DNA of 64,000 bases from an uncultured Actinomycetes bacterium (GCA_963837105.1 CAWIMG010000021.1:1-64000), one strand, 5' to 3'; positions 13,130 through 16,717 are shown, counted from the first letter of the stretch. Notes: generated by a model from the sequence alone, not told the origin. Program-made: numbers and translations.

Positions 13130-13438
13130 CTAAAGATCTTCCAGCTCGTAGATCATGCTCTGCACCCCGCCGGTCGCCAGGATCGGCACGTCCGCTCCCG
13201 TCGCCTGCCCGATGGGCGATGCGAACGCGGCCCGCAGCGCGTCCATGTCGTCCCAGTCCAGCTCCGCGACGAGGTGGAACGGCTCACCGCCGCGCACCCC
13301 TGACAGCGGGCCGCGGCTGATCGAGTAACGGCGCAGGCCCGGCAGCTGCCTGGCCAGCGGAATGTGCACCTCCCGGTAGTGGCGCTCGAACTCCTCGGGG
13401 TCGGCCGGTGTGCGGTACAGCACGAGAAACCTCACCAT
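13130..13438 (-). CDS. EthD-family protein (TIGR02118-like)
   Basis: 102 aa; MVRFLVLYRTPADPEEFERHYREVHIPLA; last gene of the operon. Confidence 0.6.
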   Translation of the reverse strand: MVRFLVLYRTPADPEEFERHYREVHIPLARQLPGLRRYSISRGPLSGVRGGEPFHLVAELDWDDMDALRAAFASPIGQATGADVPILATGGVQSMIYELEDL

Positions 13439-13460
13439 GAGCGCATGGTAACCACCGGCG

Positions 13461-14456
13461 TCACACCGACCCGATCACCTGGCTGGCGTAGGCGTCCAGG
13501 GTCGCGTCCGCGTCATCGTGCATCAGGTAGACGCTGAAATTGTCGGCGCCGATCTCCCGCAGCTCTGCGAGCCGCTCCCGGTGCCGTTCCGGCGGCCCCA
13601 GCAGGCAGAACCGGTCCACGATGTCGTCCGGCACGAAGTCGGTTGACGGGTTGCCCGCCTTGCCGTGGTGAGAGTAGTCGTAACCATGCCGCGCCCGGAT
13701 GTAGTCGGTCAGCGCGCGCGGCACCACGTCCCCGGTGTTGCCGTAGCGGGCGACCAGATCCGCCACGTGGTTGCCGACCATGCCGCCGAACCAGCGGGTC
13801 TGGTCGCGCATGTGCGGGTAGTCGTCGCCGACGTAGGCGGGCGCCGCGACGCAGACCGTCAGCTCGGCCGGGTCCCGCCCGGCGGCCGCCGCCGCCGCCC
13901 GGGCAGCACCGATCGTCCACCTGGCGATGTCGGGGTCGGCGCACTGGAGAATGAACCCGTCCGCATGCTCCCCGCATACCTTGAGCGCCTTCGGCCCGTA
14001 GGCAGCCATCCACACCTCCAGCCGCCCGTCGTGCACCCACGGGATGCGGACCTTGGTGCCGTCGTAGTCCACCTCCCGGCCCTCGGCCAGATCCCTGATC
14101 ACGCCGATGGCGTGCGCCAGGGTCGCCAGCGAGGACGGAGTGCGGCCCAGCACCCGCATGGCGGAATCACCCCGGCCGATGCCGCACACCGTCCGGTTGC
14201 CGAACATGTCGTTCAGCGTCGCGAACAGCGAGGCGGTTACCGACGGCTCCCGCGACAGCGGGTTGGTCACCATCGGGCCGACCTTCACCCTGGTGGTGGC
14301 GGCCAGGATCTGCGAGTAGATGACGAACGGCTCCTGCCAGAGCACGGACGAGTCGAACGTCCAGACGTGGCTGAAACCGCCCGCGTCGGCCCGCTGGGCC
14401 AGGTCGATGACCCGCCGGGCCGGCGGGTCGGTCTGCAGCACCAAGCCGATATCCAT
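13461..14456 (-). CDS. Luciferase-like (LLM) F420-dependent oxidoreductase
   Basis: 331 aa TIM-barrel LLM family; sits between the hydantoinase gene and ethD with 9- and 22-bp gaps. Confidence 0.8.
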   Translation of the reverse strand: MDIGLVLQTDPPARRVIDLAQRADAGGFSHVWTFDSSVLWQEPFVIYSQILAATTRVKVGPMVTNPLSREPSVTASLFATLNDMFGNRTVCGIGRGDSAMRVLGRTPSSLATLAHAIGVIRDLAEGREVDYDGTKVRIPWVHDGRLEVWMAAYGPKALKVCGEHADGFILQCADPDIARWTIGAARAAAAAAGRDPAELTVCVAAPAYVGDDYPHMRDQTRWFGGMVGNHVADLVARYGNTGDVVPRALTDYIRARHGYDYSHHGKAGNPSTDFVPDDIVDRFCLLGPPERHRERLAELREIGADNFSVYLMHDDADATLDAYASQVIGSV

Positions 14457-14465
14457 GACGCCCCC

Positions 14466-15863
14466 CTACCTCAGGTACTGGCATTCCCCACGGGGCAGGA
14501 AGCGGCCGCGGCCCGCCCGTCCGTGCCACTCGCCGCCGCCGACGATGACCTCACCCCGCGACAGCACAGTGGTGACCTGTCCCTGCACTTCCCGGCCTTC
14601 ATACGCCGAGTAGTCCACCGCCATGTGGTGCGTCTCCACCGACAGCACGTGCCGCGCGGCCGGGTCGTAGACGACGATGTCGGCGTCGGACCCGGGGGCG
14701 ATGGTGCCCTTGCGCGGGTACAGGCCGAACATCCGGGCCGGGGTGGTCGAGTTCACTTCCACCCACCGGGCGAGCGATAGCTCGCCGTCCACCACACCCT
14801 GGTGCAGCAGGTCGATCCGGTGCTCGATGCCGGGCATCCCGTTGGGAATCTTCGAGAAGTCACCGCGCCCCAGCTCCTTCTGCTCCTTGAAGCAGAACGG
14901 GCAGTGGTCGGTGGACACGATCGACAGGTCGTTGGTGCGCAGGCCCCGCCACAGGTGGGCCCAGTGCTCCTGGGGCCGGACCGGCGGCGAGCAGACATAC
15001 TTCGCGCCCTCGAACCCGGGTGCGTCCAGATCCTCCTGGGACAGGTACAGGTACTGCGGGCAGGTTTCGGCGAAGACGTTGCGCCCCTCGTCCCGCGCCT
15101 GGGTGACCGCGGCCAGCGCCTGCTGGGCGGACAGGTGGACGATGTAGAGCGGGGCGCCGGTCACCTGGGCCAGCCGGATCGCCCGGCTGGTGGCCTCCCC
15201 CTCCAGTTCCGGCGGACGGGTGCGGCCGTGCCAGCCGGGATCGCCGTGCCCGGCCGCCAGCGCCTGCGCGACCAGCACGTCGATCGCGATGCCGTTCTCC
15301 GCGTGCATCATGATCGTCGCCCCGCTGGCCGCGGCACGCTGCATGGCCTGCAGGATCTCGCCGTCGGTCGCGTAGAACACGCCCGGGTAGGCCATGAACA
15401 TCTTGAAGCTGGTCACACCCTCGCCGACGAGTGCGTCCATCTCCTTCAGCGTCTGCTCGTTGACGTCGGAGATGATCATGTGGAAGCCGTAGTCGATGCC
15501 GGCCTTGCCCTGCGCCTTGGCGTGCCAGGCGTCCAGCGTCTCCCGCAGCGAAGCGCCCTTGGGCTGCACCGCGAAGTCGATCAGCGAGGTGGTGCCGCCC
15601 CAGGCGGCCGCCCGGGTGCCGGTCTCGAAGTCGTCCGCCGAGAAGGTGCCGCCGAACGGCATCTCCAGGTGCGTGTGCACGTCGATGCCACCCGGCATGA
15701 CATAACGGCCGGTCGCGTCGATGGTCTGGTCCACCGCCCCGGCCAGCGCCCCGGTGTGGGCCGGGTCGAGCAGTGCGGCCACCGTCTCGCCGTCGATGAG
15801 AACGTCGGCCGCCGACGAGCCGGTCGCCGTGACGACGGTGCCGCTCTTGATGAGTGTGCGCAT
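14466..15863 (-). CDS. hydA: Dihydropyrimidinase / D-hydantoinase (cyclic amidohydrolase)
   Basis: Metal-binding GGIDVHTHLEMPF...; carboxylated-Lys region; ~465 aa from the internal ATG (MRTLIKSGTVV). Confidence 0.85.
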   Translation of the reverse strand: MRTLIKSGTVVTATGSSAADVLIDGETVAALLDPAHTGALAGAVDQTIDATGRYVMPGGIDVHTHLEMPFGGTFSADDFETGTRAAAWGGTTSLIDFAVQPKGASLRETLDAWHAKAQGKAGIDYGFHMIISDVNEQTLKEMDALVGEGVTSFKMFMAYPGVFYATDGEILQAMQRAAASGATIMMHAENGIAIDVLVAQALAAGHGDPGWHGRTRPPELEGEATSRAIRLAQVTGAPLYIVHLSAQQALAAVTQARDEGRNVFAETCPQYLYLSQEDLDAPGFEGAKYVCSPPVRPQEHWAHLWRGLRTNDLSIVSTDHCPFCFKEQKELGRGDFSKIPNGMPGIEHRIDLLHQGVVDGELSLARWVEVNSTTPARMFGLYPRKGTIAPGSDADIVVYDPAARHVLSVETHHMAVDYSAYEGREVQGQVTTVLSRGEVIVGGGEWHGRAGRGRFLPRGECQYLR

Positions 15864-15874
15864 GGCTCCCCCGG

Positions 15875-16717
15875 TTATGGCTGGGCCAGCGGGCCGTAGG
15901 TGTCGGGCCGCCGGTCCCGGTAGAACTGCCACAGGTGCCGGACCTCCGCCAGCATCCCCATGTCCAGGTCCCGGACCACGACCTCTTCCTCGGTGTCCGA
16001 CGCGGTGCCACCCATGATCTGCCCGCGCGGGTCGGCGAAGTAGGACGAGCCGTAGAAGTCGTTGTCGCCCAGCGGCTCCACCCCGACCCGGTTGATGGTG
16101 CCGACGAAGTACTCATTGGCGACCGCCGCGCTGGTCTGCTCCAGCCGCCACAGGTACTCCGACAGCCCCCGGCTGGTCGCCGACGGGTTGAACACGATCT
16201 TGGCACCGGCCAGGCCGAGCGCCCGCCAGCCCTCCGGGAAGTGCCGCTCGTAGCAGATGTACACACCGATCCGGCCGACCGCGGTGTCGAACACCGGGTA
16301 GCCGAGATTGCCGGGACGGAAGTAGTACTTCTCCCAGAACCCCTTCACCTGCGGGATGTGGTTCTTGCGGTGCTTGCCGAGGAACGTGCCGTCGGCGTCG
16401 ATCACCGCCGCCGTGTTGTAGTAGACGCCGTCCTGTTCCGCCTCATAGACCGGCACGATCAGCACCATGTTCAGCTCGCGGGCCAGGTCGCGCATCAGCC
16501 GGACGGTCGGGCCGTCCGGCACCGGCTCCGCCCAGTTGTACCACTGCGGCTCCTGCACCTGGCAGAAGTACGGGCCGAAGAAGAGTTCCTGCAGGCAGGT
16601 GACCCGGGCACCCTGGGCCGCGGCGTCCCGCACCGCCGCCACGGCGTTCTTCACCATCGAATCCTTGTCGCCGGTCCACTTCTGCTGGACCAGGGCGGCA
16701 CGTACGACATCGGCCAT
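15875..16717 (-). CDS. N-carbamoyl (beta-alanine / D-amino-acid) amidohydrolase, nitrilase superfamily
   Basis: CN-hydrolase fold with Glu-Lys-Cys triad region (IGVYICYERHFPE); strong SD AGAGGAG upstream of the ATG (MADVVRAALVQQ). Confidence 0.8.
   Translation of the reverse strand: MADVVRAALVQQKWTGDKDSMVKNAVAAVRDAAAQGARVTCLQELFFGPYFCQVQEPQWYNWAEPVPDGPTVRLMRDLARELNMVLIVPVYEAEQDGVYYNTAAVIDADGTFLGKHRKNHIPQVKGFWEKYYFRPGNLGYPVFDTAVGRIGVYICYERHFPEGWRALGLAGAKIVFNPSATSRGLSEYLWRLEQTSAAVANEYFVGTINRVGVEPLGDNDFYGSSYFADPRGQIMGGTASDTEEEVVVRDLDMGMLAEVRHLWQFYRDRRPDTYGPLAQP

Follow-up and report, generated by a model that had tools for sequence, protein, structure and literature searches.

The DNA considered here, hereafter the window, is a stretch of 64,000 nucleotides (nt) from an uncultured Actinomycetes bacterium (GCA_963837105.1 CAWIMG010000021.1:1-64000) with a guanine-plus-cytosine (GC) content of about 71%, a value that fits an actinomycete, and its minus strand carries a compact four-gene operon in which a luciferase-like (LLM) oxidoreductase follows two enzymes of the type that open and trim the reduced pyrimidine ring. 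From its 5' end, the operon consists of a gene for a CN-hydrolase of the nitrilase superfamily (15875-16717), a predicted beta-ureidopropionase (PydC function) whose ATG lies 31 codons inside the longest open reading frame (ORF); a gene for a dihydropyrimidinase / D-hydantoinase (PydB function; 14466-15863), whose ATG lies 23 codons inside the longest ORF; the LLM oxidoreductase gene (13461-14456), which matches the TIGR03842 family and is predicted to encode an F420H2:uracil/thymine reductase; and a gene for an EthD-family protein of the dimeric alpha/beta-barrel type (13130-13438), which matches TIGR02118 and PF07110. The gaps are 11 nt between the hydrolase and the dihydropyrimidinase, 9 nt between the dihydropyrimidinase and the LLM, and 22 nt between the LLM and EthD. 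Both the ORF coordinates and our reading of the junctions thus bear out the original prediction, a note drawn up from the sequence, which had described four close minus-strand genes with these gaps, and the four family identities it had assigned were likewise supported by hidden Markov model (HMM) scores far beyond chance. A ribosome-binding site, GGAGAGGAG, was found at approximately 16724-16732 ahead of the hydrolase gene and another, GGGGGAG, ahead of the dihydropyrimidinase gene, and the GC content at the third codon position was 0.86 to 0.93 in the four ORFs, the level expected of real genes here.

The LLM protein matched the TIGR03842 model (F420_CPS_4043) with 566 bits against a cut-off of 295, over residues 2 to 330 of 331, and the luciferase-like TIM barrel model PF00296 with 204 bits. 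Its scores against two family models of Mer, the F420-dependent methylene-tetrahydromethanopterin reductase, were 129 bits (cut-off 276) and 106 bits (cut-off 349), well short of both cut-offs, and the scores against the FMN-type LLM models of NCBIfam were 40 bits or less; the RutA model was not among its 25 NCBIfam matches at E<=1e-3. When solved structures were searched with phmmer, all of the ten best relatives were F420 enzymes, with Mer ranked first at 104 bits, although this alignment spans residues 4 to 210, the C-terminal third being too diverged for sequence alignment. The AlphaFold2 model of the protein had a pLDDT of 89.9, and the top eight matches obtained with it by Foldseek against the PDB were all Mer, with TM-scores of 0.77 to 0.85 at 21% to 27% identity. 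The C-terminal third holds a set of invariant residues specific to the family, among them W222, F223, N229, H230, R256, Y259, D260, Y261 and H264. The TIGR03842 family, which was reportedly defined by Selengut and Haft in 2010, has thousands of members in the protein database, every one of which carries a generic source name, and neither a solved structure nor a named function was found for it in NCBIfam and the protein database names. Mer-type LLMs belong to the "Type A, reductase" clade, which also includes fPKR and LxmJ (PMC8518648). The original prediction had called the protein F420-type; its placement by HMM, phmmer and Foldseek, together with the F420 biosynthesis operons described below, is Mer-like and F420-linked, and F420H2 is a well supported candidate for its cofactor.

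The two hydrolytic enzymes were assigned in the same way. The dihydropyrimidinase scored 600 bits against the TIGR02033 equivalog model (cut-off 393), and the segments DVHTH, SFKMF (containing the carboxylated Lys), MMHAENG, IVHLS and STDHCP fit the metal-ligand motifs when assigned by eye. The CN-hydrolase matched PF00795 with 224 bits but remained under every curated equivalog cut-off, its best match being aguB with 252 bits (cut-off 410). Its best solved relatives were the beta-alanine synthase of Drosophila (2vhh, 202 bits) and the human beta-ureidopropionase (6ftq, 189 bits); the structure of a plant N-carbamoylputrescine amidase gave 198 bits, and those of D-carbamoylases (DCases) only about 99 bits. 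The segments CLQELFF, HRKNHIP and ICYERHFPE fit a Glu/Lys/Cys catalytic triad, again by eye. Because of the difference between 189 to 202 bits on the one hand and about 99 bits on the other, the scores indicate that the enzyme is a linear-ureide amidohydrolase of the beta-ureidopropionase type and not a DCase, and the genomic context leads us to predict the PydC function for it, i.e., conversion of N-carbamoyl-beta-alanine to beta-alanine, CO2 and NH3.

The neighbourhood of the LLM gene was compared across one-genome-per-species contigs, which were scanned with a six-sequence alignment; at least 598 LLM matches were obtained, the best 80 of which were analysed by mapping the genes at each locus with tblastn and clustering all neighbouring ORFs for recurrent families. 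These 80 genome loci were from Streptomyces, Amycolatopsis, Lentzea, Kutzneria, Streptosporangiaceae, Micromonospora, Pseudonocardia, Acidimicrobiia and Rubrobacteria, and the LLM homologues across actinomycete orders showed 64% to 97% identity. The results showed that a dihydropyrimidinase gene lay within 10 kb of the LLM gene at 75 of the 80 loci, and directly 5' of it, on the same strand and within 100 nt, at 67; at three of the five loci with no dihydropyrimidinase match, the contig ended just upstream of the LLM gene. The CN-hydrolase gene was found upstream on the same strand at 72 of the 80. In the reciprocal set, 80 metagenome loci collected with the window dihydropyrimidinase at 64% to 90% identity, the LLM gene followed the dihydropyrimidinase gene at every one of the 49 loci whose downstream sequence extended for 1.7 kb or more (directly at 42, and behind a semialdehyde dehydrogenase gene at 7), and the hydrolase gene preceded it at all 59 loci with sufficient upstream sequence. 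The adjacency of LLM and hydantoinase, to which the original prediction had drawn attention, is thus nearly invariant in both directions (67/80 adjacent; 49/49 reciprocal), and hydrolase, dihydropyrimidinase and LLM form a near-obligate three-gene unit.

Further families that recurred in the cluster were NCS1 nucleobase:cation symporters (413 bits to TIGR00800), class-III aminotransferases, CoA-acylating methylmalonate-semialdehyde dehydrogenases (701 bits to TIGR01722) and PucR-type regulators. The usual order in Streptomyces was hydrolase, aminotransferase, dihydropyrimidinase and LLM. The aminotransferase occurred at about 45 of the genome loci and 12 of the metagenome loci (80 in each set), and there was none within 10 kb at 13 or more of the genome loci. 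Together with the dihydropyrimidinase and the hydrolase, these partners make the reductive pyrimidine pathway complete as far as acyl-CoA, except for its first, reductive enzyme. Within the cluster at the 80 genome loci, no second oxidoreductase family recurred, and neither did any of the Rut partner families. In S. coelicolor, the LLM is probably SCO6416. A transcriptome study names the hydrolase SCO6414, the probable dihydropyrimidinase SCO6415 and the transporter SCO6417 in one group of up-regulated genes (PMC3897704). The copy in the window is an ordinary member of this very widespread cluster. A separate observation is that a PPOX-class F420-dependent oxidoreductase (TIGR03666, Rv2061 family, 152 bits) is encoded about 6 kb upstream of the LLM gene at L057:4001-4384 and at ten other Streptomyces loci; this is probably local synteny, although it places a second F420 enzyme close to the cluster.

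The canonical first enzyme, PydA/PreTA, was sought by tblastn with the E. coli PreA and PreT sequences. No homologue of either was found over the whole 64 kb window or at 162 related loci (82 genome or contig loci and 80 metagenome loci), and no DHO_dh/PreA-type protein appeared in Pfam scans of 34 of the approximately 45 likely window genes. The statement in the original prediction that PydA/PreTA is absent is therefore upheld for the window and for these 162 loci. The fold of the LLM is unlike that of PydA/PreTA, which has a DHO_dh-like FMN domain with Fe-S clusters and an NAD(P)H/FAD subunit.

The diversity of TIGR03842 beyond the window's own clade was sampled by cluster representatives at 50% identity, whose contexts were often short. 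The family was found to hold several clades 35% to 48% identical to the window LLM, most of which score above the family cut-off, and the co-location of the LLM with pathway enzymes was near-obligate in three deep LLM clades. In a clade of other Actinomycetota at 44% identity, the LLM gene is accompanied by genes for a dihydropyrimidinase (TIGR02033, 601 bits), an M20 amidase of the hydantoinase/carbamoylase family (TIGR01879), an aminotransferase and a semialdehyde dehydrogenase (733 bits). As the M20 enzyme is a non-orthologous carbamoylase, the LLM stays with the pathway even when the carbamoylase has been swapped. In a clade of Thermoleophilia at 38% identity, the LLM gene is translationally overlapped by a CN-hydrolase gene. 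One locus of this clade (L095:3550-11917) has two divergent paralogous LLM and CN-hydrolase pairs, the first with a dihydropyrimidinase (566 bits) and a second CN-hydrolase, and the other with a short-chain dehydrogenase and an M20 carbamoylase. On a Thermoleophilia-type metagenome contig (L094:1-12450), the pair is located amid genes for HyuA/HyuB, enoyl-CoA hydratase, 3-hydroxyacyl-CoA dehydrogenase, MaoC, two acyl-CoA ligases and a PucR-like regulator, and this locus may represent a different cyclic-amide catabolic route with the same reductase/amidase pair. A short contig (L085:1646-6759) carries a TIGR03842 member of 42% identity beside a second LLM of 446 amino acids (aa), an isochorismatase-family protein and an amidase, of which the last two are loosely reminiscent of Rut-pathway enzymes.

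The linkage to F420 was seen most directly in Proteobacteria. In Paracoccus alcaliphilus and on ten Leisingera plasmids, a TIGR03842 gene of 42% to 44% identity ends a cofG-cofH-cofD-cofC-cofE-npdG operon, which is a complete F420 biosynthesis set with an NADPH:F420 reductase. On plasmid p402633 of P. alcaliphilus (L096:4587-11002), an NMT1-type ABC transporter gene and a CbiZ-like gene follow downstream, and on a plasmid of Leisingera aquaemixtae (L097:4510-11002), pntAB transhydrogenase genes and a class-III aminotransferase gene lie just upstream. This linkage is strong genomic evidence that TIGR03842 proteins use F420H2, with NADPH as the ultimate donor. Of the 63 residues that the three actinobacterial clades hold invariant, the proteobacterial proteins retain 52, among them W40, R69, D97, S98, R101, W140, Q171, W222, F223, N229, H230, R256, Y259, D260, Y261 and H264, and for this reason the chemistry is probably the same in both groups. 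An NMT1/THI5-type ABC binding protein is encoded near the proteobacterial genes, and the same type adjoins the dihydropyrimidinase in the 44% clade; the class-III aminotransferase is another family found near the proteobacterial TIGR03842 genes.

Based on these results, we propose that the LLM is an F420H2-dependent uracil/thymine reductase that replaces the non-homologous PydA/PreTA in the reductive Pyd pathway, with a probability of roughly two in three. The original prediction had placed both the LLM and EthD in the reductase slot; adjacency, pathway partners, local absence of PydA and F420 linkage all speak for the LLM, and the EthD part is taken up below. We infer from sequence and gene context what the substrate is (uracil/thymine), in which direction the reaction runs and that F420H2 is used. 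In the proposed mechanism, the LLM would bind F420H2, made in actinomycetes through Fgd or Fno, and would transfer the C5 hydride of F420H2 to C6 of uracil or thymine, after which an active-site acid would protonate C5 to give 5,6-dihydrouracil or dihydrothymine. The dihydropyrimidinase, with its binuclear metal and carboxylated lysine, would then hydrolyse the N3-C4 amide to N-carbamoyl-beta-alanine or N-carbamoyl-beta-aminoisobutyrate, and the CN-hydrolase, using its Cys-Glu-Lys triad, would release beta-alanine or beta-aminoisobutyrate with CO2 and NH3. To this the clusters of other genomes would add the NCS1 permease, the beta-alanine-type class-III aminotransferase, the CoA-acylating malonate/methylmalonate-semialdehyde dehydrogenase and PucR. 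LxmJ carries out C=C reduction of dehydroalanine, and the LLM step would likewise be a conjugate reduction of an alpha,beta-unsaturated amide. The redox potential of F420 is close to that of NADPH, which makes the uracil reduction step thermodynamically plausible. With a little better than an even chance, the function would extend family-wide, so that TIGR03842 would stand for F420H2-dependent uracil/thymine reductases and most Actinomycetota, including Streptomyces, Amycolatopsis, Streptosporangiales, Acidimicrobiia, Rubrobacteria and Thermoleophilia, would run their pyrimidine catabolism on F420 and not on NAD(P)H.

A number of observations weigh against this proposal. The absence of PydA/PreTA is local, covering the window and the 162 loci, and the operon in the window has no transporter, aminotransferase or regulator gene of its own; the aminotransferase of the pyrimidine cluster was not found within 10 kb of it in the window. 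TIGR03842 is listed in NCBIfam release 20 (June 2026) as a "hypoth_equivalog" under a generic name. It is also not obviously economical to maintain the whole F420 pathway for a step open to NADPH enzymes. Some of the Thermoleophilia LLM and CN-hydrolase pairs are accompanied by HyuA/HyuB ATP-dependent hydantoinases and beta-oxidation-type genes, and one TIGR03842 member is found with MaoC and acyl-CoA ligase genes, suggesting that TIGR03842 may act on other cyclic amides too, with a substrate range that varies at the edges of the family. No dihydropyrimidinase was seen near the proteobacterial TIGR03842 genes, and no Pyd genes were found in the first 100 kb of one Leisingera plasmid with the cof-LLM operon.

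These contexts lead to the question of whether the cluster degrades some other unsaturated cyclic ureide or imide, e.g., a modified pyrimidine, a 5-alkylidene hydantoin or a maleimide-type compound, with the LLM first reducing a ring C=C or C=N bond. Dihydropyrimidinases have a broad specificity that takes in hydantoins and cyclic imides, and they also serve as imidases/hydantoinases; such a role would suit the Thermoleophilia loci, where the LLM and CN-hydrolase pair occurs with HyuA/HyuB, enoyl-CoA hydratase, 3-hydroxyacyl-CoA dehydrogenase and acyl-CoA ligases, or in two paralogous copies, as well as the member found with MaoC and acyl-CoA ligase and the proteobacterial members apart from any dihydropyrimidinase. 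However, the partners of the window's own clade (NCS1 permease, aminotransferase, semialdehyde dehydrogenase and PucR) are those of uracil/thymine catabolism, its hydrolase is closest to beta-ureidopropionases and its dihydropyrimidinase lies above the equivalog cut-off, and we consider another ring substrate unlikely. Less likely still is a role for the LLM further downstream, as an F420H2-dependent malonate/methylmalonate-semialdehyde reductase resembling RutE, YdfG or PydE, with PydA/PreTA encoded elsewhere in the genome. F420-dependent LLMs do include alcohol dehydrogenases and ketoreductases (Adf, fHMAD and fPKR), and the local scope of the PydA search leaves room for an enzyme encoded at a distance; yet the closest ties of the LLM are to the dihydropyrimidinase and hydrolase, whereas the aminotransferase that makes the semialdehyde is present at little more than half of the genome loci and a minority of the metagenome loci. 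In addition, the LLM is kept where the CoA-acylating dehydrogenase is present, which would make a semialdehyde reductase redundant, and its sequence groups with the Mer-type "reductase" clade and not with the dehydrogenase clade.

The two remaining explanations appear very improbable. The original prediction had named, as one finding that would overturn it, a D-hydantoinase/D-carbamoylase pair for D-amino-acid production with an unrelated LLM; such a pair would act on 5-substituted hydantoins, and EthD, too, would be an unrelated neighbour. TIGR02033 does cover D-hydantoinases as well, and the hydrolase is under all curated equivalog cut-offs; however, its scores of 189 to 202 bits to beta-ureidopropionase structures, compared with about 99 bits to D-carbamoylases, disfavour such a pair, and partners for beta-alanine-type products recur in the cluster. 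A chance LLM neighbour is excluded by a linkage that is near-obligate whichever of the two genes is taken as the starting point and that holds in three deep clades. The other explanation is that the LLM is an FMN-dependent pyrimidine monooxygenase like RutA, or another flavin monooxygenase, and RutA is indeed a luciferase-like enzyme that acts on uracil. It is hard to reconcile with the lack of a RutA model match among the NCBIfam matches and with scores of no more than 40 bits for FMN-type models, compared with 566 for TIGR03842 and 106 to 129 for Mer; moreover, all of the closest structures bind F420, orthologues are located inside F420 biosynthesis operons, and the Rut pathway runs without a dihydropyrimidinase.

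The EthD protein scored 94 bits against TIGR02118 (cut-off 30.5) and 54 bits against PF07110, and its nearest solved structure is BH0200 (2ftr). No EthD gene was found at any of the 80 genome loci or the 80 metagenome loci. The closest relative, L092, whose LLM is 97% identical, has the same glycosyltransferase-hydrolase-dihydropyrimidinase-LLM synteny, and there EthD is reduced to a remnant of 48 codons (L092:11034-11180); the DNA of L092 can be matched to the EthD region of the window over about 130 nt, beyond which it leads into a different gene set. A relative with an LLM of 89% identity showed no trace of EthD. Given its absence from 160 related loci and the remnant in the closest relative, EthD is a lineage-specific passenger at a variable junction, outside the conserved system, and the share in the reductase slot that the original prediction had assigned to it is not sustained. 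The EthD-side junction is recombination-prone. Beyond the remnant, L092 has DinB, an ECF sigma factor and others; in the window, the operon is followed at its 3' side by a convergent TipAL/MerR-type gene (12357-13121), beyond which lie a PIN-domain toxin gene (11629-12003) and the small ORF upstream of that toxin gene (12000-12245). A candidate terminator or attenuator hairpin between LLM and EthD (13432-13451) was rejected: the one consensus match had a folding energy no better than that of shuffled sequences (z = 0.45), and terminator-like sites occurred in a number equal to the chance expectation.

At the 5' side, the operon is separated by 67 nt (16718-16784, minus strand) from a same-strand family-2 glycosyltransferase gene in the flank of a hopanoid region, and these 67 nt are the likely site of the operon promoter/operator. 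No sigma-70-like promoter was found upstream of the hydrolase gene, and motif conservation there does not reach past the close relatives; as there is neither a promoter match nor wider conservation, we infer this role and do not regard it as observed. The glycosyltransferase gene is syntenic with a radical-SAM/DUF3463 gene in L092. The hopanoid-type cluster lies at 25896-33841 (minus strand), and also at 16785-18086, and includes LytB fused to a PNP_UDP phosphorylase domain, two squalene/phytoene synthase paralogues and an amine-oxidase-type HpnE-like gene. Farther away, a dihydroxy-acid dehydratase (ilvD-type) gene at 48108-49987 (plus strand) is seemingly split into a 167-aa ORF with the first 118 positions of ILVD_EDD_N only and an overlapping 509-aa ORF in another frame, which may reflect a frameshift, a pseudogene or a sequencing error. 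At 59084-62458 (plus strand), a protein of 1124 aa combines DUF4062, an adenylate/guanylate cyclase domain, NB-ARC and TPR repeats in a STAND-type architecture.

The original prediction had also held that an F420 cofactor switch is undescribed for this pathway. In agreement with this, no description of an F420- or TIGR03842-linked Pyd pathway was found in the full-text literature, subscription journals being outside the search, and pyrimidine catabolism is not mentioned in a 2021 review of F420. What deserves attention is the functional inference for the TIGR03842 family and not any peculiarity of the window locus. If the proposal is correct, it would give a precise function to a large orphan family of F420 enzymes (at least 598 species-genome matches and thousands of proteins) and fill the apparent PydA gap of actinobacterial pyrimidine catabolism. 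It would be the first F420 role in primary nucleobase catabolism, adding primary nitrogen/nucleobase metabolism to the short list of F420 roles in aerobic bacteria. It would also provide a rationale for F420 biosynthesis operons in Proteobacteria, explaining why the plasmid-borne cofGHDCE-npdG operons of Paracoccus and Leisingera end in this single F420 enzyme, and it would make a new class of enzymes available for reducing fluoropyrimidines and uracil and for F420 biocatalysis on C=C bonds of the enamide type.

Among known systems, Mer (1z69, 8qpl) is the closest solved relative of the LLM and belongs to the same "Type A reductase" clade, but the LLM remains under the cut-offs of the Mer models, and its context is nucleobase catabolism and not C1 metabolism. 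RutA is likewise a luciferase-like TIM barrel acting on uracil at the first catabolic step, as proposed for the LLM; it differs in being an O2- and FMN-dependent, ring-cleaving oxygenase that works with RutB-G and no dihydropyrimidinase, and the LLM has no significant match to its model. Formation of dihydro-uracil is also attributed to the oxidoreductase SSGG-03002 / NpsU in mureidomycin/napsamycin biosynthesis, for which in-vitro activity was not obtained (PMC10714638); compared by description, this enzyme performs secondary-metabolite tailoring on a uridyl peptide, unlike the catabolic LLM. A closer parallel in logic is the Chloroflexota variant of the reductive uric-acid pathway, in which an F420-type LLM "yanthine reductase" was proposed bioinformatically as the ring reductase (PMC12507026). 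There, too, a putative F420 enzyme of the luciferase family takes the place of a PydA-like ring reductase ahead of a cyclic amidohydrolase, but that case is a prediction only, likened here to TIGR03842 by description, and concerns a purine/uric acid pathway with SsnA, HyuA and YgeW as partners. The canonical Pyd pathway (PydA/PreTA, PydB and PydC) shares with the operon the TIGR02033 dihydropyrimidinase and the beta-ureidopropionase-like CN-hydrolase, and with the operon's relatives the permease, the beta-alanine-type aminotransferase and the malonate/methylmalonate-semialdehyde dehydrogenase, whereas its FMN/Fe-S PydA/PreTA gives way in the operon to a TIM-barrel LLM that belongs to an F420 family and is not homologous to it. 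The first Pyd step is known to draw on different electron donors in different lineages, with NAD(P)H-dependent PydA on the one hand and the ferredoxin-dependent clostridial PydAc on the other (PMC7332683). PydAc, which has an FMN site, remains a homologue of PydA, while in the operon the whole fold has been replaced and the proposed donor is F420H2.

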